Source: Clostridia bacterium
GTDB lineage: Bacteria > Bacillota > Clostridia > UMGS1883
Reading direction: 5' to 3'
Length of the DNA stretch: 64,000 nucleotides
NCBI GenBank assembly: GCA_017414645.1
Contig: JAFQLL010000017.1
Location: 6,057 to 70,056, forward strand
Shown: positions 1,853-34,800 of the stretch, piece by piece
Layout of the letters: each line of letters opens with the position of its first letter
Position numbering within the stretch: the first letter of the stretch is position 1
Notes under the pieces: model-generated
Told to the model about the DNA's origin: nothing
What the model saw: the letters and a program-made list of their open reading frames with translations, nothing else
The model's database searches: none
Program-made: the position numbers and the translations under genes

Positions 1853-3085
1853 ATGGAATTTAACAGAGTGAAGAATGCTGACGTAGAGTTATACGAGGCT
1901 ATGAGCCGCGAAATTAACCGTCAGAAGAACAAAATTGAATTAATCGCTTCCGAAAACTTTGTTTCCGAAGCTGTTATGGAGGCTATGGGCAGCCCCCTCA
2001 CAAATAAATATGCTGAAGGCTATCCCGGTAAGAGATATTACGGCGGTTGCGAATATGTTGACGAGGTTGAAACCATCGCCATTGAAAGAGCAAAGGCGCT
2101 CTTTGGTGCAGAGCATGCAAACGTTCAGCCCCACAGTGGTGCACAGGCTAACATGGCTGTGTTCTTTGCCGTTCTTAACCCCGGCGACACAGTTTTATCT
2201 ATGAGCCTTGCTCACGGCGGTCACCTTTCTCATGGTAGCCCTGTTAACATGAGCGGTAAGTACTTTAACATTGTGCCCTACGGCGTAACAGAAGAAAACC
2301 AGACAATTGACTACGAAGAAATCCGTCGTCTTGCATTGGAATGTAAGCCCAAGCTTATCTTAGCAGGTGCAAGTGCATATTCAAGAGAAATTGACTTTAA
2401 GAAGTTTAGTGAAATTGCAAAGGAAGTTGGCGCATATTTCATGGTTGACATGGCGCACATTGCAGGCTTGGTTGCTGCAGGCGTTCATCCTTCTCCCGTG
2501 CCCTATGCCGACTTTGTTACAACAACAACCCACAAAACACTCCGCGGTCCCCGTGGTGGTCTTATCCTTTGTAAGGAAGAGCATGCAAAGGCTGTTAACA
2601 AGGCAGTTTTCCCCGGCATTCAGGGTGGCCCCTTAATGCACGTTATCGCCGCAAAGGCAGTTTGCTTCAAGGAAGCTGCAAGCGACGAATTCAAGGCTTA
2701 TCAGCGCCAGATTGCTAAAAACGCAAAGGCACTCAGTGAAGCTCTTCTTGCTAAAGGCTTTGACCTTGTTTCCGGCGGCACCGACAACCACCTCATGCTT
2801 GTTGACCTTCGTCCCTTCAAGGTTACAGGTAAGGAATACGAGCACCGTCTTGACGAGGTTGGTATTACAGTTAACAAAAATGCAATTCCCTTCGACCCCG
2901 AAAAGCCCGGCGTAACAAGCGGTATCCGTGTTGGTACACCTGCTGTTACAACACGTGGTCTCAAGGAAGAAGACATGGTTGAAATTGCAGAATTAATGTA
3001 TCTCACAATTGCAGAGTTTGACACAAAGCAGGACGAAATCCGTGCAAGAGTAAAGGCTCTTTGTGACAAATATCCTTTGTATTAA
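1853..3085 (+). CDS. glyA: Serine hydroxymethyltransferase
   Basis: 410 aa; PLP-lysine motif [14 protein letters not shown]; full-length SHMT layout. Confidence 0.97.
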
Positions 3086-3117
3086 AAAGCTCTGCTTTTT
3101 AATACAGTGCAGAAGTG

Positions 3118-3284
3118 GTGAAGTTTTTGCTTATGCAAAAGTGAAGTTGTTCGTTTCACTCACAGTGAAGTTTTTATTGCATAAAAGTGAAGTTAAGTTT
3201 GAACTTCGGCGTAAGCCGAAACTTCACTCGCGAAGTGAACTTCACTATCGAAGATAACTTCGCTTGCCGACAGGCAAACTTAGT
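3118..3284 (+). repeat. GTGAAGTT/AACTTCAC 'ladder' element, copy 1 (candidate structured 3'-UTR RNA)
   Basis: Four GTGAAGTT at 3118, 3141, 3165 and 3187. Central hairpin TTCGGC-GTAA-GCCGAA. Complements AACTTCAC at 3220 and 3238, degenerate at 3256 and 3277. Small side hairpins lie between octamers. A second copy is at 21515-21683. Confidence 0.75.
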
Positions 3285-3313
3285 TGTCAGCAGAGCTGAC
3301 AGAGGTGATTTTT

Positions 3314-4570
3314 ATGAGCAGTCCTTTGGCAGACAGAATACGTCCTGACAGCCTGGATTTGGTTGTAGGTCAGCATCATTTGCTGGGCGAAGGAAAGGTA
3401 TTACGCAACATTCTTGAATCGGGTAACATTCCTAACATGATTTTTTACGGCCCCAGCGGTGTTGGCAAAACAACCGTTGCAAACATTGCGGCAAAAAGGG
3501 CAAACAAGCGTCTTTTCAAGCTCAATGCAACAACTGCCTCCGTTGCCGATGTAAAGCATGTTGTAGAGGAGTCCGAAACACTTTTCGGCACAGACGGTGT
3601 GCTTTTATATCTGGACGAAATACAGAACTTTAATAAAAAACAGCAGCAAAGCCTTCTGGAATGCATTGAAAACGGCAAGGTTACCCTCATTGCATCAACT
3701 ACCGAAAACCCCTATTTTTATGTATATAACGCCATTTTGTCACGTTGTACAGTGTTCGAATTCGAGCCTGTTGGCCCCAAGGACATTTGCGAGGCAATTG
3801 ACAGAGCAACCCATCTTTTAGGCGAGGGCGTTGTAATAGAAAATGATGCAAAGGAGCATATTGCAAATACCTGTTCTGGCGACGTGAGAAAGGCTCTTAA
3901 CACTCTTGAGGTTGCATCTCTTACAGCAAAGGCAGACGAGAGTGGCAAGCGCTTGATTACCTTAGACATAATTGAACAGGCAACAAGAAAAAAAGCCTTC
4001 CGCCACGACCGTGACGGCGACGACCACTACGACGTTTTGTCCGCTTTCCAGAAGTCTGTACGAGGAAGCGACCCCGACGCGGCACTTCACTACATGGCGC
4101 GCCTTTTAACAGCAGGGGACCTGCAAAGCGTAACAAGGCGCATTCTTGTTATGGCAGCCGAAGACATTGGTCTTGCGTACCCTAACGCAATTGTAATAAC
4201 AAAGGCATGCGTTGATGCGGCGCTGCAGCTTGGTCTGCCCGAAGCACGCATCCCTCTTGCCGAAGCTGTTATAATGCTGGCAACTGCGCCGAAGTCAAAC
4301 AGTGCAATCTGCGCTATCGATGCTGCCATGGCAGACATAGCCTCCTCCGACACAGGCGAGGTGCCTTATCACTTAAAGGACAGCCACTATAAAGGTGCTG
4401 AAAAGCTTGGCCATGGTCAGGGCTATAAATATCCTCATTCTTATCCTAACCACTATGTGCCACAGCAATATCTGCCCGACAAAATTAAAAACAAAAAATA
4501 CTACACCTATGGCGACAACAAGATGGAGCAGGCAACTGAAAACTATTGGAAGAGTGTAAAAGGAAAATAG
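3314..4570 (+). CDS. rarA: Replication-associated recombination protein A (AAA ATPase)
   Basis: Walker A GPSGVGKTT and an MgsA/RarA-type C-terminal domain. Start set at ATG 3314 behind RBS AGAGGTG; the track ORF begins at an upstream TTG. Stops at TAG 4568-4570. Confidence 0.92.
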   Translation: MSSPLADRIRPDSLDLVVGQHHLLGEGKVLRNILESGNIPNMIFYGPSGVGKTTVANIAAKRANKRLFKLNATTASVADVKHVVEESETLFGTDGVLLYLDEIQNFNKKQQQSLLECIENGKVTLIASTTENPYFYVYNAILSRCTVFEFEPVGPKDICEAIDRATHLLGEGVVIENDAKEHIANTCSGDVRKALNTLEVASLTAKADESGKRLITLDIIEQATRKKAFRHDRDGDDHYDVLSAFQKSVRGSDPDAALHYMARLLTAGDLQSVTRRILVMAAEDIGLAYPNAIVITKACVDAALQLGLPEARIPLAEAVIMLATAPKSNSAICAIDAAMADIASSDTGEVPYHLKDSHYKGAEKLGHGQGYKYPHSYPNHYVPQQYLPDKIKNKKYYTYGDNKMEQATENYWKSVKGK

Positions 4571-11073: not shown

Positions 11074-11147
11074 GCGGGTGTAGTTCATCGGTAGAATTCC
11101 AGCCTTCCAAGCTGGTTAGGTGGGTTCGACTCCCATCACCCGCTCCA
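11074..11147 (+). tRNA. tRNA-Gly(UCC)
   Basis: Cloverleaf folded by hand; anticodon loop CUUCCAA; encoded CCA. Confidence 0.9.
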
Positions 11148-11153
11148 AAATAC

Positions 11154-11230
11154 GTGCCTGTAGCTCAGCTGGATAGAGCAACTGCCTTCTAAGCAGTAGG
11201 TCCTGGGTTCGAGTCCCCGCAGGCACGCCA
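11154..11230 (+). tRNA. tRNA-Arg(UCU)
   Basis: Acceptor GTGCCTG/CAGGCAC; anticodon loop CUUCUAA; encoded CCA. Confidence 0.9.
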
Positions 11231-11267
11231 TTTTTTTATTCAGTGTCATTTCAAATGGCACTCATAT

Positions 11268-11345
<78 letters not shown>

Positions 11346-11417
11346 TTATTAAAAAAACAGGATCCGGTGATACCGGGGCTTCCGCGAACCGGTCTTGAGC
11401 GATTCGCTCTTTTATTT

Positions 11418-11493
11418 TGGACCGTAGCCAAGCGGTAAGGCACCGGACTTTGACTCCGGCATTTCGTGGGTTCAAATCCCGCCGGTCCAGCCA
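11418..11493 (+). tRNA. tRNA-Gln(UUG)
   Basis: Acceptor TGGACCG/CGGTCCA; anticodon loop CUUUGAC; encoded CCA. Confidence 0.88.
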
Positions 11494-11496
11494 CAT

Positions 11497-11572
11497 GGGA
11501 CACTAGCTCAGTCGGTAGAGCACTTGACTTTTAATCAAGTTGTCGGGGGTTCGATTCCCCCGTGTCTCACCA
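11497..11572 (+). tRNA. tRNA-Lys(UUU), integration target
   Basis: Anticodon arm CTTGA-CTTTTAA-TCAAG; T arm GGGGG-TTCGATT-CCCCC; encoded CCA. The 3' 46 nt are duplicated at 18742-18787. Confidence 0.92.
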
Positions 11573-11679: not shown

Positions 11680-12609
11680 ATGAAAAAATTCAAAATGAAC
11701 ATCGGAAACACAGTAGCGGAAACTTTCGAGGATTTTATAATATCCCGAAAGGTAAAAGGATTGAGCGACAAAACACTAAAGACCTACAATCAACACTTTA
11801 AAGCCATAAGCCGCCATATCTCGGTTGATATTCCAATAGACACATTGAGTAAAGCCGACTTGGAGGAAATGGTTTCAAATATGCGCGAAGCGGCTCTTTC
11901 GGCAACTACAATAAGCAGTTATGTACGAACTATGAAAGCGTTTCTTTCTTGGTGCAATGAGGAAGATATAACAACACTCACAATTCAGAATTACAAATGC
12001 GCAGAAACAATAAAAGAAACGTACACCGACAAAGAGCTTGAAAAGCTACTTAAAAAACCAAATATCCGAAAGTGTCTTTTCTCCGAATACAGAACTTGGG
12101 TCATAATCAACTTGCTTGTGAATAATGGTTGCCGCGCGGCAACTGTACGAAACATCAAAAACAAAGATGTTGATTTAGAAAACTTCGTTATTTATTTAAG
12201 GCATACCAAAAGCAAAAAAGCACAAGTGATTCCATTGTGTACAGAACTTTGTTTAATACTCAAAGAGTATATGCGCATACGAAGCGGCTCGGAGGATGAT
12301 TTCCTTTTTCCAACAGAAGAAGGGACACAAATGAAAGAGTTTTGTTTGCGAAGCAGCATTGCAAGGTACAACAACAGGCGCGGCGTACAAAGAACAAGCA
12401 TACACGCATTCCGTCACACTTTCGCGCGCAAATACTTGGTTGACTGCGGCGGCAATGCTTTTACACTTCAACGCCTTTTGGGTCACTCCACATTAGAAAT
12501 GACAAAGCATTATTGCGCTATCTTCGACAGGGATATTGCAAAGAACTATGACCGCTTCTCTCCGCTTTCGCAACTTAAATCCAGTAGTAACCGCATTAAA
12601 ATGAAATAA
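11680..12609 (+). CDS. Tyrosine site-specific recombinase (phage integrase family)
   Basis: SAM-like N-domain. C-terminal catalytic residues in ...HAFRHTFAR...LLGHSTLEMTKHY. Confidence 0.9.
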   Translation: MKKFKMNIGNTVAETFEDFIISRKVKGLSDKTLKTYNQHFKAISRHISVDIPIDTLSKADLEEMVSNMREAALSATTISSYVRTMKAFLSWCNEEDITTLTIQNYKCAETIKETYTDKELEKLLKKPNIRKCLFSEYRTWVIINLLVNNGCRAATVRNIKNKDVDLENFVIYLRHTKSKKAQVIPLCTELCLILKEYMRIRSGSEDDFLFPTEEGTQMKEFCLRSSIARYNNRRGVQRTSIHAFRHTFARKYLVDCGGNAFTLQRLLGHSTLEMTKHYCAIFDRDIAKNYDRFSPLSQLKSSSNRIKMK

Positions 12610-12690
12610 GGTAAAACAAAATACAACAAGCCTCAACAAACTAAAACAAAGCAGTCTAAAGTATCAACTTTTGACTGCTTTTATTATCTT

Positions 12691-13722
12691 TTATTCAGTT
12701 TCGTATACGCTCTGTATTTTGGAAATGTATTCTTTCATTTGTTCTACAACGTGCGGCGGATTTTCTATCTTTGCCTTTTTGCCGAAGCCACAAAGCCATC
12801 CAAAGAATTGGTCACTTATTTCAACGTCTGCCGCCACTATAAAATGGTTTTTATCCTTTGCCATATAAAAGACATCAGACTCTGTTCCGAACCTTTCTAT
12901 GACAGTATCAAGAAGCGGATTGATGAAACGTATAACAACGTGTTCGCGAGTGCCGTTGAACATTGAAAAAACGCGGCGCGTGTATGTTGTTAAATCAATC
13001 TTTGCAAAAACTTCTTCTCCTTCTCTTGGCTCTGCGATTTCTCTGACATCTTTCATACGGTCAACACGATATGTACGGAAATCGTTCTTTTCACTATCAA
13101 AAGCCAAAAGGTAATAGTTGCCATCATTGATTAAAAGTTTAAAGGGACTTACTTTGTATGTGTTTCCCTTTTTACGTTCTACTTGTGAGTGAACATCATC
13201 TATTGTGTACTTTAGATATTTAAAGGTTATCTTTCGCGGCGTATGCGGCTTTCCGTTGCGTTTCTTTGCCATTGCATAGTTTATTCTGTCAATGATTTTT
13301 ATAATATGTTTTTCTGTGGTCTTAACCCTGTCGCACATAAAAACTTCTTTTTCTAATTCTTCGCGCTGATAAAAACTGCAGAACTTGCCTAAAGTTTCAA
13401 CAAGGTCTCTTGCTTGGGGTGCTGAAACAAACTTTGCCGCGCAAACACATTCAGCCAAAAGGCGTAATTCGTCATAGTCAAAATCACGCGATAAAAGCCT
13501 AAATCTGCCGCCTTGCATTCCGTCAATATCCATACCGAAAACATCTCTTAAAAGAGCTATATCGCGGTAAATTGCGCGCCTTTCCGCAACTATATCACAC
13601 TCATTTTTTAAATAGTCGCATATGCCTTTTTCAGTTGCTACTGGATGGTTTTCGTCCGAGTATTCAAGAAGGTATTTCGCAACGTATAATATTCGCAATT
13701 TTGTGATTTCGTTTTTTGGCAT
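12691..13722 (-). CDS. HTH + WYL-domain transcriptional regulator
   Basis: N-terminal wHTH; WYL-domain signature around YYLLAFD...FRTYRVDRM. Start set at ATG 13722 behind AAGAGG. Confidence 0.8.
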   Translation of the reverse strand: MPKNEITKLRILYVAKYLLEYSDENHPVATEKGICDYLKNECDIVAERRAIYRDIALLRDVFGMDIDGMQGGRFRLLSRDFDYDELRLLAECVCAAKFVSAPQARDLVETLGKFCSFYQREELEKEVFMCDRVKTTEKHIIKIIDRINYAMAKKRNGKPHTPRKITFKYLKYTIDDVHSQVERKKGNTYKVSPFKLLINDGNYYLLAFDSEKNDFRTYRVDRMKDVREIAEPREGEEVFAKIDLTTYTRRVFSMFNGTREHVVIRFINPLLDTVIERFGTESDVFYMAKDKNHFIVAADVEISDQFFGWLCGFGKKAKIENPPHVVEQMKEYISKIQSVYETE

Positions 13723-13794
13723 ATTAAAACCTCTTTCGTTAGTATAATAATATAATAACATCAACTTTGCAAAAATACAACGAAAAACAAATGT

Positions 13795-13838
13795 TTGACT
13801 TGATGCAAAAGTGTGGTATAATAACTATACCACACTTT
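13795..13838 (+). promoter_or_regulatory. Strong rightward promoter (TTGACT-16-TGgTATAAT) overlapped by a perfect 13-5-13 palindrome
   Basis: AAAGTGTGGTATA-ATAAC-TATACCACACTTT at 13808-13838 covers the -10 element. Divergent from the WYL gene promoter (TTGCAA-17-TATTAT on the minus strand). Confidence 0.65.
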
Positions 13839-14008
13839 CACTTTAATAATAAAACACCGAGCATTCTTGGGAATGTTCTGTTTTGCTATTCAAAAATATA
13901 CACATAAGCAAAGTTGTGTTTTGCAAAAAATGCGGCTTTAATATGTGCTTTGTTTGTGTGTATTATTGAGAGTGAATGTGTGGTAGCATAAATCTCCGCC
14001 GCGTTTTT

Positions 14009-14045
14009 ATGCGTGGTGACGATTTATGTTGCCACGCATTTTTTA
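14009..14045 (+). terminator. Terminator-like hairpin ~185 nt downstream of the 13795 promoter
   Basis: ATGCGTGG...CCACGCAT stem followed by TTTTTAATT. Confidence 0.5.
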
Positions 14046-14284
14046 ATTGCGTGAGAATTACGAAAGGAGATTTTGAGTTGAAAAAACGTAATGTCACCCA
14101 GTCCAAAAGTAGAAGCATGGGGCGGTATATTATGGGAGATAAAAAATCGAAAGTCATATTTTGATATATAGGAGGTCATTCCAATTTTGAAATGTGATTT
14201 TGATTTTGCCGTCTCCGACAAATCACACAATTAAAAAAGCACACTTATATTTCAAGGTGTGCAAACACAGAAAGGAAAATTATT

Positions 14285-15361
14285 ATGAAAAGAAATGTTT
14301 CTCTCTTATTGGCAGTAATACTCACATTGTTGAGCTTTTCGTCTGTTTCTGCTAAAGCAGATGGAAGCCTGTCTAATTTTCAAGCAGTACAAAGCTACAC
14401 AGAAGGTCAATTTACAGATGTTTCATCTTCTGCTTGGTATGCTCCTAACGTAAAATATACTTATGAAATTGGTTTGATGAATGGCAATAGTGATACAACA
14501 TTTAACCCTGACGGAAATATATTGCTTTCCGAAACTATTGCATTAGCAAGTCGTTTACATAGTATATATTATAATGGTGAGGCAAGTTTTGAAGCAAGTA
14601 CACCTTGGTATCAGTCTTATGTTGATTATGCAATAGATAATCGTATAATCGGTTCTGGCAAATATACATACTTTGATAAAGCAACAAGGGCAGATTTTGC
14701 TGAAATTATGGCAAAAGCTTTACCTTCAGAAGTATATAATAAAATCAATACTGTTGACGATGATGCTATTCCCGATGTTAAAACTGCAGCAAAATATTCC
14801 GATGCGGTATATACTCTTTACAGAGCAGGTATTGTAACAGGTAGCGATGCAGAAGGAACTTTTAATCCTACATCAAATATTAAACGCTCTGAAGTTGCTG
14901 CAATCGTATCCCGAATTGTTGATAAAACACAAAGAAAGTATATCACACTTAAATATGAAGTTTCCGAGACATATAAGTATTTTCCTGTTAAAACACTAAC
15001 TGCTGTAACTGGGGCTGAATGTAAGGATTCATATACGGGATATAGTATTCAGATAAACAATGGATACATTGAAGATAACAATACATTTAATTATGATGTT
15101 AAATCAGTATCAGATTATGATAGGTACTTTGTTCCTTATATAGAATACCTTGAATCAAATCCAAATGTTACAAGATATAGCAGCGACGGAATGGACCTTG
15201 GTGGTTTTACTAATGTTTCTTATACGTATAAATTAAATGATGGTAGCAATAAATACATAGATGTTTCATGGAATTATGGAGAATATACTAAAACCTATAG
15301 TATACGGGTATGGATGTATGGAATTAAGAACGGAAAAGTTGTTTGGATTCAGAATATGTAA
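14285..15361 (+). CDS. Secreted S-layer-homology (SLH) domain protein
   Basis: Signal peptide. SLH-like repeats (FTDVSSSAWYAPNVKY..., FNPDGNILLSE, FNPTSNIKRSEVAAIVSR). Confidence 0.75.
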   Translation: MKRNVSLLLAVILTLLSFSSVSAKADGSLSNFQAVQSYTEGQFTDVSSSAWYAPNVKYTYEIGLMNGNSDTTFNPDGNILLSETIALASRLHSIYYNGEASFEASTPWYQSYVDYAIDNRIIGSGKYTYFDKATRADFAEIMAKALPSEVYNKINTVDDDAIPDVKTAAKYSDAVYTLYRAGIVTGSDAEGTFNPTSNIKRSEVAAIVSRIVDKTQRKYITLKYEVSETYKYFPVKTLTAVTGAECKDSYTGYSIQINNGYIEDNNTFNYDVKSVSDYDRYFVPYIEYLESNPNVTRYSSDGMDLGGFTNVSYTYKLNDGSNKYIDVSWNYGEYTKTYSIRVWMYGIKNGKVVWIQNM

Positions 15362-15397
15362 ACAAAAAGAGTGGGATTTCCCACTCTTTTTGTTTAT

Positions 15398-15522
15398 GTT
15401 CGTAAAGGTACACCTTTAGAAACAGGCAAAAAGGGCGTGTTTTCCTTGTTCGTAAAATATTAAAAATTATTTGCGAATATGTTCGTAAAATTGTTGACAT
15501 TTGCGAACAGCGGAGGTATAAT
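15398..15522 (+). promoter_or_regulatory. res-like repeat cluster plus TTGACA-17-TATAAT promoter of the serine recombinase
   Basis: GTTCGTAAA at 15398, 15448 and 15481. Inverted TTTGCGAA(C) at 15470 and 15500. -35 at 15494-15499, -10 at 15517-15522. Confidence 0.6.
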
Positions 15523-15551
15523 ATAGCTATAATCAACAAGGGGGCAATACA

Positions 15552-16160
15552 ATGGAAACACGTACTTACTATTATGCGAGAGTATCAAGCAAGGAACAAA
15601 ACCTTGACAGACAGATTGAGGCTTTCAAAGCTCTTGGAGCTGATGAAAGAGATATTATAACAGACAAGGAAAGCGGCAAGGACTTGAACCGCACAGGCTA
15701 TACCGCATTAAAAAATGCAATGCTCCGAAAAGGCGATACGCTTGTTGTAAAATCTCTTGACCGTCTTTCAAGAAACAAAGCAGACATTAAAAACGAACTG
15801 CAATTCTTTAAAGATAACGGCATCCGTTTAAAAGTTATCGACTTGCCAACAACAATGATGGAATTGCCAGTAGGTCAAGAATGGGTGTTTGAAATGGTAA
15901 ACAACATCTTGATTGAGGTTTTGGGAACAATCGCAGAACAAGAGCGCGAGACAATCAAAAAAAGACAAGCTGAAGGTATCGAAGCGGCAAAGAAAAACGG
16001 CAAGCGTTTGGGGCGTCCCGCACTTGTTTTTCCGCAGAATTGGAAGCAAGTGTATGCTGACTGGCAAGAAGGTAAAATTACCGCCAAAACTGCAATGGAA
16101 TTGACCGATACCAAGAGAACAAGTTTTTATAAGTTAGTGCAAATGACTGAAGGCAAATAA
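15552..16160 (+). CDS. Small serine recombinase (resolvase/invertase family)
   Basis: YYARVSSKEQNLDRQ catalytic-Ser motif; C-terminal HTH; 202 aa. Confidence 0.9.
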   Translation: METRTYYYARVSSKEQNLDRQIEAFKALGADERDIITDKESGKDLNRTGYTALKNAMLRKGDTLVVKSLDRLSRNKADIKNELQFFKDNGIRLKVIDLPTTMMELPVGQEWVFEMVNNILIEVLGTIAEQERETIKKRQAEGIEAAKKNGKRLGRPALVFPQNWKQVYADWQEGKITAKTAMELTDTKRTSFYKLVQMTEGK

Positions 16161-16192
16161 AAAAGACGGGAGGCGTTGACCTCTCGTCTTTG
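16161..16192. terminator. Bidirectional terminator between convergent genes
   Basis: AAGACGGGAGG-CGTTGA-CCTCTCGTCTT. Confidence 0.65.
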
Positions 16193-16196
16193 AGTT

Positions 16197-16595
16197 TTAT
16201 ATTAAAGTGTTCAATACATCTTTTGCATTGACCTTGACCACATCAAATAGTCTCCAATCTTCTACTTTTGGAATCTATGTATTAAGAAGCGGCTTGTATT
16301 GTCTGATGTATTCTCCTTCTTTGTTTCCAATTTCATCATCAATAGCATAATACCCCTAACTGCTTGCATAATAAAGAACATCAAAGTTAATTGAATGCCC
16401 TTTCCTTTGCGCCTCGGACAGTATGCGGTATTTCAATTCGCTTTCGCATTTTATACCGACATAGTGTTGCGCCACGCGTTTTAGCATATTCTGACTTTTG
16501 CCGATGTAAACAATCTATTCATCGACCTTTATACAGTAAATGCCTGCGTGCTCGTATTTTGGTGCAAGACCTTGTCTTTTCAAGTAATTATACAT
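16197..16595 (-). pseudogene. GIY-YIG nuclease-like gene with three in-frame TAG codons (pseudogene or amber-recoded)
   Basis: Hand translation gives MYNYLKRQGLAPKYEHAGIYCIKVDE*IVYIGKSQNML...YYASS*GYYAIDDE...LLNT*IPKVEDW...LI, ending in TAA. TAG at 16515-17, 16356-58 and 16275-77. RBS GAGG. Confidence 0.7.
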
Positions 16596-16612
16596 ATTAA
16601 CCTCGTAGCTCA

Positions 16613-17176
16613 TTAGAATACAAACCCCTTTTCTTTTGGTTCTCTTTGCGGTCTTGGTATGACAATCTCTTTTACTTTTGGAACTTCTATGACTGCTTTC
16701 TGTTGGTTATTCTCTCCGTTATTTGTTTTATTATTTGTTATAATATTATCTATTTCTATACTACTGGGGTCAATTAAATTGTTGGCAGGCTCTTCTTCTT
16801 GAACGTTTCCCGTATTCTCAAAATCGCGAGCCGACAAATTATTTTTTAATTGAGCGCCACGCGCCTGAGGTACTTCGTAAAAATCAAAAGTATTGCTTCC
16901 AGTTTCGACCAAATAGCCTTTGTTAATTAGAATTTTTAACTGGTCGCGATAGGTGGAACGCGCCATCCCTATGGATAGGTTGACCGCTTCGGGCGAAAGC
17001 GCAAACGTATAGTTGTCTGCATTTGCCGCAAAATATAAGTAAAGAGAAAAGGCATATGGCTACAAATCTTTAATGGCATTTTGCCAATTCTCATTCTTGA
17101 TACCTAAAAAATCATTTGTAATTTTTTGTCTGTGAACCCGAACCATTCTTTGGTTCGGATAACTTATTCTTGCCAT
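16613..17176 (-). pseudogene. Winged-helix, replication-initiator-like protein gene with one in-frame TAG
   Basis: MARISYPNQRMV...NAIKDL*PYAFSLYLYFAANADNYTFALSPEAVNLSIGMARSTYRDQLKILINKGYLV... TAG at 17060-17062. The track ORF 16613..16966 is only the distal part. Ends in TAA. Confidence 0.65.
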
Positions 17177-17180
17177 AATT

Positions 17181-17366
17181 TTATCGTCCTTTCGTTGTAT
17201 CTTTTAATGGTTTGAAAATCTTATCAAGTGATTGTTCGATAATTTCTTCAAACTGTTTTTCTATGCCGATGGTATAGAATATTCTTTTGCGCTCCTTTTG
17301 GAGAATCTCGTGCGGTTGCAGATTGTCTTTCTTATATTCTGCATATCTCTAAATTGCGGATTTCAT
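17181..17366 (-). pseudogene. 61-codon small gene with one in-frame TAG at codon 6
   Basis: AGGAGG 8 nt upstream of ATG 17366. MKSAI*RYAEYKKDNLQPHEILQKERKRIFYTIGIEKQFEEIIEQSLDKIFKPLKDTTKGR. The TAA is 4 nt before the next ATG. Confidence 0.5.
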
Positions 17367-17486
17367 TATAAAATCCTCCTTTCATTTTTACTTTCTATAA
17401 TTATTATACAAAAATTTTTTATAAAAATCAAAGTGAGGCGAAGCGGTACTCGTTAAAAAAAGAGTTTGTTCTATGTGAACAAACTC

Positions 17487-17927
17487 TCATCCGTTAGCTG
17501 CTTCTGCTTTTGTTTCGTACTCGTCAATATTAGGTTCGGGTACAGGAAAAGCAGCAATATTCTTGGGTTCAAAATCGGGTAATTCTTTATACGTGGGGAA
17601 CTGCGCGTTGAACCAATCGCAAACATACTTGTAGGGGCAAGCCAAGGGCGCAGACTTTGCTTTTATAGTCTCGAAGCGGCTTAAGAGCTCGTTAGCGTTT
17701 GCAAATGTGTTAATGTACTTTTCCATATTTTCATAGGTTAAACGCTTGTTGTAGCGCGGTTTTTTCTGTTCTCTGCCGGACTTAACAATTACGCTAAAAT
17801 TGGGAAAATCACTTAATATGCTCTTGCGAATATTGTATTCTTCCGAGCCGTAAACGGAAGCCGCCGCGGCAAACTTAAAATTCATAATCAATGTGTTTGT
17901 TGTGAAATCAATCTTATATCCTGTCAT
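17487..17927 (-). CDS. Hypothetical protein, paralogue B of a tandem pair
   Basis: 146 aa. Shares the Y(E/D)NMEKYI ... PYKYV(C/L)DWFN blocks with 17943..18380. Confidence 0.7.
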   Translation of the reverse strand: MTGYKIDFTTNTLIMNFKFAAAASVYGSEEYNIRKSILSDFPNFSVIVKSGREQKKPRYNKRLTYENMEKYINTFANANELLSRFETIKAKSAPLACPYKYVCDWFNAQFPTYKELPDFEPKNIAAFPVPEPNIDEYETKAEAANG

Positions 17928-17942
17928 TGTAATATCCTCCTA

Positions 17943-18380
17943 TTATTTATTAACTGCATTATTGAACGGAACAACGTTTTCTTGTTCATTTGTCTTTTCT
18001 TCTTTGAAAATATCATGTGTTTCATAGCCTTTGAATGTTTCGTTGAACCAATCCAAAACATACTTATAGGGGTTCTTTTGGATTGCGGAAGCGGCTTTTA
18101 CCTTTTCAAACGTTACAAGATATGCCGCACTATCTTTGCCGCAAGCTGTCTTAATGTACTTTTCCATATTATCGTATGTGCGGTTCCTGTTTGTTTTCTT
18201 GTCGGGATTCTTCTTAATGCTCTTGGTTCTCATTTCAGCGTTGGGGTATCTTGTAATGAACTGTTCCCACATTTCGTATTCAGCTGAACCAAAGATTCTT
18301 GCATTTTTCATAAATGCCTTTGTTACCTGACCTACTACTGTTCCGTTTGTGTTTCTAATTACTGTAATCTGATTTTTCAT
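17943..18380 (-). CDS. Hypothetical protein, paralogue A of a tandem pair
   Basis: Start set at ATG 18380 (MKNQITVIRN) behind AAGGAGG. Shared blocks with 17487..17927. Confidence 0.7.
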   Translation of the reverse strand: MKNQITVIRNTNGTVVGQVTKAFMKNARIFGSAEYEMWEQFITRYPNAEMRTKSIKKNPDKKTNRNRTYDNMEKYIKTACGKDSAAYLVTFEKVKAASAIQKNPYKYVLDWFNETFKGYETHDIFKEEKTNEQENVVPFNNAVNK

Positions 18381-20837: not shown

Positions 20838-21518
20838 ATGAAATATCGTTACGAAACACATTGCCACACAAAGCCCGTAAGCGCATGCGGTCATGCAACT
20901 GTACGTGAAACGTTGGAGTTTTACAAAAGCTTAGGCTATGATGGCGTTTTTATAACAAACCACTTTTTAGACGGTAACATCGGAATAGACTGGAACACAC
21001 CCGTTACAGAAAAGCTTGACTTTTATTTTTCAGACTACGAGGAAGGCGTAAAAATAGCCGAGGAAATTGGCATTAAGGTTTTCCTTGGTGTTGAAATGAG
21101 CTATGGCGGCACCGACTTTCTTGTTTTCGGGCTGGATAAAAAATGGTGGTATGACCACATTGACATTCTGCAGGAAAGGAAAAGCCGACAGCTGCCATAT
21201 TTCATGAGTGAGGGCGCTTTAGTGGTGCAGGCGCACCCCTTCCGTGAAGCAGGCTATATCGACCACATCCGCCTTTTTCCCCGTGGGGTAGAGGGTGTTG
21301 AGGTTATGAACGCCGACAGAACCGACTTTGAAAACCACATGGCAAACCTCTATGCCGAGGAATACGGCCATTTGAAAACAGCAGGCAGCGACAACCACTG
21401 GGCAAGCGGTGCAAAGCGCCTTGCAGGCTTGGAATGTGACGAAGCTGTTGACAGCGTAGAGGATTTTATAAAAAAGCTCCGCGACGGCAAAATGAGCATT
21501 TTTACAGTGGAAAGGTGA
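20838..21518 (+). CDS. PHP-domain phosphoesterase
   Basis: N-terminal ETHCHT metal motif; later HP...H and GSDNH motifs. Confidence 0.8.
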   Translation: MKYRYETHCHTKPVSACGHATVRETLEFYKSLGYDGVFITNHFLDGNIGIDWNTPVTEKLDFYFSDYEEGVKIAEEIGIKVFLGVEMSYGGTDFLVFGLDKKWWYDHIDILQERKSRQLPYFMSEGALVVQAHPFREAGYIDHIRLFPRGVEGVEVMNADRTDFENHMANLYAEEYGHLKTAGSDNHWASGAKRLAGLECDEAVDSVEDFIKKLRDGKMSIFTVER

Positions 21519-21683
21519 AGTTTTGAACCATGTTCAAAGTGAAGTTGTTTCTTACGAAACAGTGAAGTTTTACGTTTTACGTAAAGTGAAGTTAAGTTTG
21601 CACTATGCCGTAAGGCATAACTTCACTTGCAAAGCAAACTTCACTGCGAAAGCAACTTCACTTGCCTGAAAGGCAAACTTAAT
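21515..21683 (+). repeat. GTGAAGTT/AACTTCAC 'ladder' element, copy 2
   Basis: GTGAAGTT at 21515, 21539, 21562 and 21586. Central ATGCC-GTAA-GGCAT. AACTTCAC at 21619, 21637 and 21654, degenerate at 21676. Confidence 0.8.
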
Positions 21684-21689
21684 TGTATT

Positions 21690-21733
21690 AAAAAAATCAG
21701 GGTTGGGGAATTTATCCTAACCCTGATTTTTTT
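21690..21733. terminator. Bidirectional terminator
   Basis: AAAAAAATCAGGGTTGGGGAATTTATCCTAACCCTGATTTTTTT. Confidence 0.8.
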
Positions 21734-22151
21734 AATACAATGTATAAGTACCTTTAACCATAATAATTATGTCAGTATCGGCTTTAATGCCTCTGCCGTC
21801 TGAAAGGGGCACAATAAGGTTGTGGTTTGCAGGAACTGCAGAGCCGTGAGGCCAGTCGCCGCCCAGAGTTATGTCGCAAAGACCACCTTTTTCTGTTGCA
21901 ATAACAGTTGCAGTACCCATTCTGAGAATAATTTCGCAGCCTGCATCACCGATAAGCATCTGATTAGCGCTTAAGTTAACTACAGTATAGGAAGACACCT
22001 TGTTTACATAGGGAATAAGATTTGTTTCAACATAGCTCTTGGAAATGAGCGGGTCTTCGGGCGAACCGGGTTCAGCTGCAGAAACCGCAATTGCCACTAA
22101 AAAGGTGAGCGCCAGTATGATTGTAAGGGTACGGTTTGTAATTGTTTTCAT
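21732..22151 (-). CDS. Hypothetical secreted protein
   Basis: Signal peptide; 139 aa; RBS AAGGAG. Confidence 0.6.
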   Translation of the reverse strand: MKTITNRTLTIILALTFLVAIAVSAAEPGSPEDPLISKSYVETNLIPYVNKVSSYTVVNLSANQMLIGDAGCEIILRMGTATVIATEKGGLCDITLGGDWPHGSAVPANHNLIVPLSDGRGIKADTDIIIMVKGTYTLY

Positions 22152-31891: not shown

Positions 31892-34800
31892 TTAGTAGTT
31901 AGAATTGCCAAAGATTTTAACAAGACTTTCGTGCAGAGCTACGGGTATAATTTCTGTTATTGAGGGATATTCCCACATTTTTTGAACTTCTCCCCAAAAC
32001 CCTTCGTATTTTGAGAAATCTCCGTCGTATAGAATTTCCATTGATTTCGTTGCACATGAGCTACCAACTGCAAGATAGATTTCATCATCCCAGTCGAATT
32101 TGCCGTTGTTTTTTTCTACATCGTTTTGAGCATGTTCGATAGATTCTGTAAAGTCACCTTCAATATAGACACTTTTATCATAATTATTAAACGAATTTTC
32201 ATCATGTACACCAGAGGCAACCAGCCATTTATTAAGATCATCAATATTATCAAGAGGATATATTACGGTTCCATCGCTCATAGTATATGAATCTGGTACT
32301 TCTACTAAAATCACAGTTGCAGTCCAAATCGGCATTCCGCTTTGACTTGGACCAAAATAGTAATAACTCCATTTTCCAGTGCTCTCATCTTCTAACAAAA
32401 GAGATGTGTGCCCCAGCCCACCAACTGCAGTAGATGCAGTTATTACTCGTGCATCTAACCCACTCGGGTCAACAAACGCAATGGGGTTATTACTACAATA
32501 CACATACCAGTTCGTTCCGTCCTTGATGGGGTCAACGGAAATGAAGCGACCTATTGAGGGGTCATAATAACGTGCACGAAGGTAAATGTCGCCTGTTTCG
32601 TTGTCGAGATATTCACCTGCATAGCGGAACGGGTTTGTATCGGTTGACCTTTCTCCCTGCCATATTTCACCAAAGGGAGAATAGTAATAATTCTGCACAA
32701 TGGGATATTTAACACTGGCGGTGTTTAAGTCCATAAAGTCAAACTCACCATCGCAGTTCAAATCCATCTCGGGGAATGGTGCAGCAGAGCCGTAGAAGGG
32801 TGAAAGATACAAATCAACACTGTCGATTGCCATGGTGTGAACAACGTTGCCTCTGCCGTCATAGGCGTAAAATTCGTGATAGCCGTTGACGGGAACAACA
32901 GTTTCAACATAATCGTCGAGGGTTTCGTCATAATAAGAGTCAATAAATGCATTGTAGGTGTATGCATCGCCCTTTACAGTACGGGAAACACGGTTAACAC
33001 CGTAGAAATAGTCTGTTGACTTGTCAGGTGTTTCCTCGCGGACAATGTTGTCGCCAGCCCAGATGAAGGAAGTGGTTACACCGTTTGCTGTTTTGCTTGT
33101 TCTTAAAGAAGAAGCATTGTAGGTGTAGGTATATGTTCCGCTTTGGGTTGTAACGGATGCAACCTCGTTACGTGGTGTGTAGGTATACTGATAAGTAACC
33201 GAGTCGTTAAGCTTGGCAATGGTGTTGCCGTTTGCATCGTAGCGGTACTCGGTAACGTTGCCTGCTGTGTTTTCGCTTGTTAAGCGGTGATTTGTGTAGG
33301 TATAAATAGTTGCTGTGGAAACGTTTTCGGCATCTGTTACGGTCTGGCTTGTGCGGTCACCACGATTGTTGTAGTTGTAGCCCCATGTGCGGACACGCGC
33401 GCCGTTGTTGGTTGTGTTTGCAATTGTAAGGCGGTTGGCAGCATCGTAGCCATAGATGGTGTCGTAGGTGGTGCTGCCGCGTGTGTCGGACACGGTTTTC
33501 ACATTGCCGTCGGGGTAGTAGGAATACACAAAGGATGAAAACTCGCGTATATCATTGTAGCCTTCTTCGTATGTGGGGTCATTGACAAGGCGACGGCTAT
33601 GGGTAGTGGATTTCATTAAATTACCGGGAGTGTATTCATACTCGGTAATAAGTCCGCTCTTTTCCTCGGTTGTGGGGAAGCCGTTTTCGTTATACTCATA
33701 CACTACAGTGTCAACACCATCGGAGGCAGAGGTCATATTGCCAAGGATGTTATACTCGTATGTATTGGTTTGCAGTGTGGTAGTGCCCTTTTTAAGGAGC
33801 ATGGTTTCAACCTGCCCTGCAGTATTATATGTACGGAGTATGGAATTATCCCCTGTAACCTCTGATATGTTACGACCAAAGTTGTCGTATGCATAGGTTG
33901 TGGCAACATTGTTACGGCTTGCCAATGTAATGTAATTGAAGGAATTGTATTCATATTCAATCACGTCGCCTGCTACAACAGATTCTAAAAGATTGCTTCT
34001 TGAATCGTAGGTGTTATACGTAACCTGGCCCTTGGGGTCGGTTGTTGTAAGTGTGTTGCCTGCAAGGTCGTAGGTGTAGGAGGTTGTGCCGTTAAAGGTT
34101 GTTTCGGATATAAGGTTGCCGAAGTTGTCGTATGCAAAATCAGTAACATTATAGGTTGAATTAAGGGGCGTAAGCTCAGAAATGTCAGTTGTTGAGCTCT
34201 CTAAGCCTGACACCGTTTTTACGAGCTGATTGCCGTCGTATTGGTTAACTGTGTAGGTTGAACCGTTAAAGGACGATACAAGGCGGTTGCGGTTGTCATA
34301 AGAATAAGTGTATGCAACATCGCCTGCTGCCGCTGAAACAACTGTTTTGACAGTATTGCCGTTAGCGTTGTAATAATAGCTTGAAAGGCCTGTTACATCA
34401 GTATCAACAGGGGCTGACTTGGTGAGCATACGACCGATGGAGTCATAAGTATAGGTTGTGGTGTTACCCATGTAGTCTGTTGTTGAAAGCTGTCTGCCTA
34501 ATACGTCGTAAGTGTTGGTAATGTAATTTTCATCGGCATTATATGCCTTAATTACCTGGTTATTATAATTATACTCGTATTTCTGCGAATAGTCAACATC
34601 ATAATCTGCATAGGCAGCTTCGTCCTTGTATTCAAGCACGTTGCCAAGGGCATCGTAGGTATAGGTAGCAATATACTCATTATCTCCGTCGGTTGTGATT
34701 TGCTTGCACAATCTTCCTTGGCGGTCGAGGTATTGCTTCACCGTGGGAGGAGTGATGCCGTCCTTTGGTGTTGATTCTACGGTGACAGAAGTGAATTGAT

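Follow-up and report, generated by a model that had tools for sequence, protein, structure and literature searches.

Gut-1 (Rfam RF01706) was described from human-gut reads as a motif with a consensus of three hairpins separated by GUGAAAU and was considered to be probably a noncoding RNA and not a cis-regulatory element (Weinberg et al. 2010; PMC2864571); we found no later work on it in the searchable literature. Here we analyzed 64,000 nucleotides from a Clostridia bacterium (GenBank assembly GCA_017414645.1, contig JAFQLL010000017.1, positions 6,057 to 70,056; the window), in which a first-pass annotation had noted a ladder-like array of octamers and hairpins between glyA and rarA. Our results firmly show that this array (copy 1, 3118-3300) is a member of the Gut-1 repeat family; it represents, in full length, a structured repeat found dispersed between genes in gut Clostridia. 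A second copy lies at 21515-21684. The family itself is already catalogued, and what is new here is its full-length architecture and its context. The observation made in the first-pass annotation was confirmed, while its interpretation was partly supported.

In the published Gut-1 alignment (PMC2864571), 6 of the 11 sequences inspected continue in their flanks with a central hairpin and four complementary heptamers with longer hairpins; the arms there pair GUGAUAU with AUAUCAC or GUGAAAU with AUUUCAC, and the family found here pairs GUGAAGU with ACUUCAC. Since these flanks carry a second arm, the catalogued Gut-1 motif is the short arm of a composite element, although short-arm-only arrays do occur, both in that alignment and among the loci collected here. 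At a permissive threshold, the short arms of both window copies matched Gut-1 on the - strand (3216-3286, 42.2 bits, E = 2e-7 for copy 1; 21615-21685, 41.3 bits for copy 2; E of about 2-4e-7 for both), and the alignments spanned model positions 1-77 of 77. Neither copy reached the gathering score of 50 bits, at which Rfam reported only tRNAs in the window, and other Rfam families gave chance-level matches only. Five homologues do pass the gathering score, with GTGAAGT-family copies in loci L016, L026, L057, and L063 scoring 51-57.4 bits. The short arm is thus Gut-1 below the Rfam/Infernal cutoff, so the element is not a new family.

The likeness to Gut-1 extends to the layout, with three consecutive short hairpins, GUGAAAU-type heptamer linkers, and a degenerate first unit (CAAUGAAAU in Gut-1, CAACUAAGU here); both come from gut microbiomes. 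Read in the Gut-1 sense, the linkers of the window copies are CAACUAAGU, GCGAAGU/GUGAAGU, GUGAAGU, and GUGAAGU, and the three hairpins (helices 10, 11, and 12) show compensatory changes at 3 of 3, 4 of 4, and 4 of 5 pairs, respectively. The differences are that the Rfam model, of about 77 nt, lacks the complementary arm, the central hairpin, the centre-to-end helix, and the adjoining hairpin described below and that the heptamer here is GUGAAGU. A motif that has been an orphan in Rfam since its discovery in human-gut reads in 2010 can now be placed in Oscillospiraceae, Christensenellaceae, and Acutalibacteraceae, and its catalogued 77 nt can be recognized as a single arm of a larger pseudo-palindrome, which measures about 170-185 nt and has a set polarity beside gene ends. 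Gut-1 has no assigned function, and membership therefore says nothing about mechanism.

Each copy is built as a pseudo-palindrome, in which four units of an octamer plus a 14- to 16-nt hairpin, a central hairpin, and four units of the complementary octamer plus a 9- to 14-nt hairpin follow one another. In copy 1, for which the covariance model R1 described below gives 162.9 bits (+ strand) and 62.4 bits (- strand), the long arm (3118-3194, + strand) carries GTGAAGTT at 3118, 3141, 3165, and 3187, a spacing of about 23 nt; its spacers (3126-3140, 3149-3164, and 3173-3186) are hairpins that covary across copies (helices 2, 5, and 7). The centre, GTGAAGTTAAGTTTGAAC, leads into the central hairpin TTCGGC-GTAA-GCCGAA (3205-3220, + strand; helix 9), which has compensatory changes at 6 of 6 pairs. 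The short arm (3220-3284, + strand), which is the part matching Gut-1, carries AACTTCAC at 3220 and 3238, AACTTCGC at 3256, and AACTTAGT at 3277, at spacings of 17-21 nt (18, 18, and 21), and its hairpins (3228-3238, 3246-3256, and 3264-3277) are the covarying helices 10-12. The short-arm end is adjoined by the hairpin GTCAGC-AGA-GCTGAC (3286-3300, + strand), which is followed by the rarA ribosome-binding site. At the other side, a small terminator-like hairpin, AAAAGC-TCT-GCTTTT (3085-3100, + strand), directly follows the glyA stop codon. The flanking genes, SHMT/glyA ending at 3085 and MgsA/rarA starting at 3314 (Pfam), are as the first-pass annotation had claimed. All octamer positions that it gave are also present, as are all four hairpins that it listed, namely TTTTGC-TTAT-GCAAAA, the central hairpin, TATC-GAA-GATA, and TTGCC-GACA-GGCAA. 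Among the long-arm spacers, that at 3149-3164 (GTTCGTTTCACTCACA) forms no hairpin on the + strand; on the - strand it folds as UGUGAG-UGAAA-CGAACA, a stem with tandem G.A pairs. As for the loops that it called GNRA type, GTAA is one and GACA is a GNNA loop.

Copy 2 has the same architecture, scoring 169.4 bits with R1, with GTGAAGTT at 21515, 21539, 21562, and 21586, AACTTCAC at 21619, 21637, and 21654, and AACTTAAT at 21676. Its first unit overlaps the stop codon of the gene at 20838-21518, which encodes a PHP-domain protein. Its short-arm end is followed by a bidirectional intrinsic terminator at 21690-21734, predicted from the sequence and the open reading frames (ORFs), that is shared with a convergent 139-amino-acid gene (21732-22151, - strand). 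When aligned, the two copies show 85% mean column identity, with 100 of 201 columns invariant; they have the octamers and the centre in common and differ mostly in the spacer hairpins, which remain self-complementary. Outside these two copies the exact octamer is absent from the window: all 13 occurrences lie inside them, compared with 2.5 +/- 1.6 in shuffled sequences, none of which (0 of 100) reached 13. Neither a profile HMM (hidden Markov model) nor a covariance model detected a third copy in the 64-kb window.

A pattern scan for three GTGAAGTT octamers 12-20 nt apart, limited to one genome per species, returned at least 120 stretches. Most of the listed matches from metagenome-assembled genomes (MAGs) of Clostridia have four units spaced by about 23 nt, then an interval of about 36 nt, and finally three units 16-18 nt apart; the carriers are assigned to Oscillospiraceae, Acutalibacteraceae, Christensenellaceae, Ruminococcus, Ca. 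Scatosoma, and Faecousia and come from the ruminant and human gut. Matches in Bacteroidales, Actinomycetota, Acidobacteria, and Proteobacteria were plain 12- to 22-bp tandem repeats and were rejected. The covariance model R1, built from 43 copies, recovers at least 62 full 4+4 copies at 100 bits or more among the matches listed, including both window copies, and since it always scores one strand about twice as high as the other, the element is directional.

These copies firmly show that a single-strand structure has been kept by selection in many old copies. In a model-fitted alignment of the 62 copies, pairing holds for 94.5% of cells. Both sides are changed in 485 cells, compared with 131 +/- 9 in shuffles, none of which (0 of 500) is as high; when the partners are displaced by 1-3 columns, pairing falls to 34-43%. 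The eight local hairpins show compensatory changes at nearly every pair. Their sequences drift by compensatory substitution, whereas the octamers are fixed across units and copies. Many further copies with compensatory changes are therefore present in related genomes, and we found no match to a known element acting purely at the DNA level; the first-pass annotation had named the opposite outcomes as refuting its view.

The folding of the octamers themselves is less certain. RNAalifold, applied to a plain MAFFT alignment, returned rungs 2-4 as three nested octamer helices with side hairpins. The nested rungs are part of the minimum-free-energy fold of copy 2 on both strands, and in copy 1 they lie within 1.8 kcal/mol of the minimum on the + strand and within 4 kcal/mol of it on the - strand. 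Between families, the octamers of both arms change together (GUGAAGU, GUGAUAU, and GUGAAAU). We consider the ladder plausible as a predicted fold, with the limit that covariation within the family cannot confirm its rungs. Of the four stacked 8-bp helices originally proposed, the three inner ones are plausible, but the outermost (3118-3125 with 3277-3284) is weak, with five Watson-Crick pairs, two G.T pairs, and one mismatch, and it competes with a better-supported helix, P0.

In P0, TAAGTTTGCC in the centre pairs with GGCAAACTTA at the 3' end; across the 43 copies it is 92% paired, with 13 double changes compared with 3.1 in shuffles. In copy 1 it comprises 8 bp between TAAGTTTG (3194-3201, + strand) and CAAACTTA (3275-3282, + strand), the latter overlapping the last hairpin and the terminal degenerate octamer. 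Its sequence changes between families, UAUAUUCGCC pairing with GGCGAAUAUA and GAAAUUUGCCC with GGGCAAAUUUC. Neither the weak outer rung nor the last local hairpin can form together with P0, which can coexist with the inner rungs only as a pseudoknot. Complementarity between the loops of opposed side hairpins, judged by eye in both window copies, was inconsistent and was discarded.

The element has a consistent polarity with respect to its neighbors. In 43 contexts remaining after the removal of look-alikes, the gene on the short-arm side reads into the element in 35 (P = 4e-5) and the gene on the long-arm side in 21; 15 contexts are convergent, 15 are tandem in the Gut-1 sense, 6 are tandem in the other sense, and 2 are divergent. 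In 44% of copies, the short-arm end is directly adjoined by an unbroken stem of 8 bp or more, compared with 3% of random positions and 10% at the other end. The hairpin at this place varies in sequence and is often the bidirectional terminator of the neighboring gene. Copy 2, with the terminator of the convergent gene at this end, fits the rule, and copy 1 is an exception. At rumA-like genes (PF05958 plus TRAM), the adjoining hairpin is made of the codons for the C-terminal HVESVVCL and an inverted copy of them (L013, about 4181-4230; L016, about 440-500; also L085, L047, L097, L099, L103, and L118). Synonymous codon changes at these loci, including a TCC-to-AGT serine switch, are compensated in the other hairpin arm, which indicates that these copies are old and maintained.

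Among described repeats, the REP/BIME elements of enterobacteria and pseudomonads, with their RAYT (Y1) transposases, are similar in having inverted short palindromic units in many copies per genome, located between cistrons or at gene 3' ends, with a structure kept by compensatory change; a role in stabilizing or punctuating mRNA and in protein binding has been ascribed to them. Within a genome, however, REP stems keep their sequence, whereas here conservation is confined to the 8-nt linkers and each copy has stems of its own; the hairpin sequences of the window copies differ, so that the conserved palindromic unit of the REP type is missing. REP/BIME elements also combine 1+1 units where this element has 4+4, and no RAYT-like gene occurs in the loci that we clustered (about 1-8 kb each). 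The MITE-like BOX, RUP, ERIC, and Correia-type repeats share a modular build of about 100-200 nt that gives stable branched RNA when cotranscribed, in either orientation beside genes, but they are conserved over their full length (with TA target duplications in Correia), in contrast to the variable interior, conserved structure, and lack of target duplication seen here.

The reading that we favor, tentatively and at somewhat less than even odds, is that of a structured repeat of the REP/BOX kind, which would function in folded single-stranded form, probably as RNA, and be recognized by a putative octamer-specific factor. Most likely, the element would be carried as RNA in the 3' untranslated region (UTR) or intercistronic part of a neighboring transcript. 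The local hairpins would form first; the complementary octamers could then zip the arms outward from the centre, giving a branched ladder with three or more rungs, and the short-arm end could alternatively pair with the centre through P0. Such a compact fold might protect, punctuate, or process the transcript end, as for REP/BIME, BOX, and ERIC, and we infer that RNA ladders of at least three rungs on neighboring transcripts affect their 3' ends or processing. An octamer-specific factor is proposed because pairing alone would let the rungs drift as the hairpins do. The alternative long-range helix, the invariant octamer, and a recurrent PF05635 neighbor (see below) are leads that make the function of this motif experimentally approachable.

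The strand on which such a fold would act is indicated by a mixed set of signals, most of which favor the - strand, i.e., the Gut-1 orientation. Mismatches in long-arm stems comprise 71 tandem G.A and 15 G.U on the - strand, compared with 3 G.A and 6 G.U on the + strand, where the 71 appear as T.C/C.T. Long-arm spacers fold better on the - strand in 59 cases and on the + strand in 13 (P = 1e-7). Non-Watson-Crick cells of P0 on the + strand are A.C in 10 cases and G.T in none, and for P0 and the last hairpin together, 14 wobble cells favor the - strand and none the + strand (A.C, 14; G.T, 0). The opposite preference is seen for short-arm spacers, of which 12 fold better on the + strand and 3 on the - strand (P = 0.02), and for one-sided changes in rungs A-C that remain G.U, of which 6 favor the + strand and 1 the - strand (A2 alignment). 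The asymmetry in the G.A and A.C counts excludes a purely double-stranded DNA reading. The first-pass annotation, which had proposed RNA-level structure on the strand that it read, was right about a single-strand structure, as the covariation across the 62 copies shows, but most strand signals favor the opposite strand.

Several observations weigh against a folded RNA on neighboring transcripts. None of the 28 rung pairs shows a compensatory change within the family, and the invariance of the octamers could reflect protein recognition instead of pairing. Each arm folds best on the strand that reads ACTTCAC, i.e., on a different strand for each arm; this mirror-image preference is not predicted for a single functional transcript and so argues against one. 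On the ACTTCAC strands, C(GNA)G triloops and GNNA tetraloops make up most of the loops, and the dominant C(GNA)G triloops are typical of stable DNA mini-hairpins. Both orientations relative to genes occur in the family; in the commoner one, many copies lie just past a terminator, and both window copies are of the minority type, their + strand being in the sense of the gene or genes whose mRNA would carry them. Rearranged and hybrid copies, together with an exact 77-nt duplication, suggest recombination or mobility. As far as the letters go, the evidence would fit folded RNA and folded single-stranded DNA alike.

Many of these points are shared by a DNA-level explanation, which we regard as possible though rather doubtful: the folded strand or an extruded cruciform would be the substrate of a sequence-specific recombinase, transposase, or junction-binding protein that recognizes the paired octamers, as in MITE- or attC-like elements, and the element would be a mobile site that inserts beside terminator hairpins and is able to flank small genes or to capture them. 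The fixed polarity next to hairpins speaks for it, as do octamers that are invariant in all eight units of all copies while the rest drifts and that are family specific and altered on both arms together. Loop and mismatch preferences mirrored on opposite strands would be expected of inverted ends, and the predominance of C(GNA)G triloops points the same way. The rearrangements are specific: L091 has an exact 77-nt repeat of the short arm plus centre on both sides of a unit made of the long arm and a PF05635 gene; L038 is a permuted copy, with the PF05635 gene between a long arm and a short arm able to pair; and L022 (2358-2560) is a hybrid in which an arm of four GTGAAGT is joined to an arm of four ATATCAC. 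The PF05635 gene (117 amino acids; 23S rRNA intervening-sequence protein, a four-helix bundle) lies about 20 nt after the long arm at about 10 loci, i.e., about 10% (L013, 3616-3966; L016, 697-1047; L091, 4606-4953; L038, 2725-3072; and about six more), and the same gene follows the element behind unrelated upstream genes. At L038 and L091, where it is bracketed by pairable arms, the arrangement resembles 23S rRNA intervening sequences, in that a long stem would enclose the gene in its loop, but the element lies outside rRNA genes, the window copies lack the gene, and the association is confined to that minority of loci.

Against mobility at the DNA level, we found no target-site duplication of the kind expected of a MITE (direct matches between flanks averaged 5.7 nt, compared with 5.4 nt in mismatched-locus controls), and flank complementarity was at the level of the control except at L120 and window copy 1. 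In copy 1, AGCTCTGCT in the core of the 3085-3100 hairpin is the reverse complement of AGCAGAGCT in the 3286-3300 hairpin, a 9-nt inverted match, and in L120 the hairpin core AAAAAGAGGCGG..CCGCCTCTT is present twice, once in each flank of the element; these shared cores could be a trace of an insertion process. Clustering of 813 ORFs from 120 loci yielded no recurrent transposase, integrase, or RAYT-like gene; the recurrent neighbors were rumA-like methyltransferases, PF05635 proteins, and generic ABC ATPases, and the 20 window ORFs scanned with Pfam include no recombinase. No autonomous relative of the MITE type was seen in the loci, viral contigs, plasmids, or phages, and PF05635 is not a known transposase. 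A phage or plasmid source was likewise rejected: the three-octamer pattern matched 39 stretches in IMG/VR, all coding tandem repeats or iterons and none a ladder, and blastn against PLSDB and INPHARED gave no match. The age of the copies at rumA-like loci and their upkeep by compensatory change are also unlike inert insertions.

A particular form of the DNA-level view, which appears quite unlikely to us, is that octamers paired across the arms would form a row of Holliday-junction-like four-way junctions, a docking platform for a recombinase or the PF05635 protein that marks terminator-proximal cassette sites. If true, this would amount to an attC-like cassette system in gut Clostridia based on single-strand structure, with insertion, duplication, and exchange. 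Integron attC sites are similar in being imperfect palindromes at gene 3' ends that are conserved in structure but, except for short boxes, not in sequence and which act as a folded single DNA strand; they sometimes form arrays, and L016, L039, and L091 have several elements separated by small genes. The element differs in forming a multibranched ladder instead of a single bulged hairpin, and no integrase was found in the Pfam scans or locus clustering. Its ends are GTGAAGTT and AACTTAGT, not the terminal RYYYAAC/GTTRRRY cores (R''/R') of attC, and the sole GTTRRRY (GTTAAGT) is central. Firmicutes are not known to carry integrons.

Returning to folded RNA, the element might instead be a small RNA gene in its own right, as the Rfam type of Gut-1 ("Gene; sRNA") has it. 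It would be transcribed from the window - strand, and single-stranded GUGAAGU repeats between its hairpins would titrate an RNA-binding protein, as in CsrB, with the complementary arm as a mask. The original classification of Gut-1 as noncoding RNA and not cis-regulatory (PMC2864571) agrees with this, as do the existence of short-arm-only arrays and the finding that most wobble and G.A signals lie on the - strand. However, no promoter-like site flanks either window copy, and a hairpin or terminator abuts the 5' end directly and leaves no space for one, which makes a stand-alone small RNA less likely. The transcript of copy 1 would furthermore be antisense to glyA and rarA. At several loci, a gene begins shortly past the element, with its ribosome-binding site at a distance of about 10-15 nt and its start codon at about 20 nt, which implies cotranscription. 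Taken together, we consider an independent gene improbable.

A nonfunctional origin, as chance low complexity or decaying junk with palindromes as mere by-products, is strongly disfavored and has, in our view, hardly any chance of being correct. Some adjoining hairpins do look insertion made, such as the inverted coding copy at rumA-like genes and the duplicated terminator cores at L120 and copy 1, but the octamer enrichment is far above chance, compensatory change is massive in eight helices across Clostridia families, and architecture and polarity are conserved.

The flanking genes do not explain the element. No ladder element was found within 2.5 kb of glyA in any of 80 metagenomic glyA relatives (65-76% identity), in which the element shows no tie to glyA or rarA; a role as a regulator of either gene was therefore rejected. 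Five of these relatives have adjacent glyA and rarA, and their spacers, all free of the element, consist of a 42-nt gap (one), unrelated palindromes (two), or an extra gene (two); this absence from syntenic relatives is again what a mobile DNA site would leave. The glyA-rarA spacer and the region 3' of the PHP-domain gene thus each hold a repeat element and neither holds a gene-specific regulator. In other species, unrelated long GC-rich palindromes occupy the glyA-rarA spacer (L179, 3720-3970; L203, 3720-3930), and this spacer seems to attract structured inserts repeatedly.

Two further conserved sequences were noted next to long arms. A noncoding leader (AAATGTGAGTTTYGAGCAAAACTCGAAA..TACAATTTACAGCAGT, about 75 nt) stands between the long arm and unrelated genes (L016, 3275-3360; L018, L047, L071, and L097; and L033, after the element), and in L039 (20-200, 775-960, and 3880-4100) and L059 (5672-5800), arrays resembling the long arm run into a different conserved tail, GTTATTCGGTAAGAGACCTC... 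The heptamer GUGAAGU (e.g., 3118-3124) is identical to what we take to be the strand of the 16S rRNA decoding site at E. coli positions 1489-1495; this is probably a coincidence, as the sister families use GUGAAAU or GUGAUAU.

Elsewhere, the window shows no GC-skew switch of the kind that marks a replication origin and that might have explained the orientation of the copies, the skew being positive in 26 of 31 4-kb windows and the cumulative skew rising throughout. Five tRNA genes lie at 11074-11569, and an RHS-repeat protein of 1857 amino acids is encoded at 31892-37465 (- strand). A low-GC stretch at 12000-18000 (0.36, compared with about 0.44 elsewhere), which may be an island, holds the genes for a WYL/WCX-domain protein (12691-13764, - strand) and an SLH-domain protein (14285-15361, + strand).

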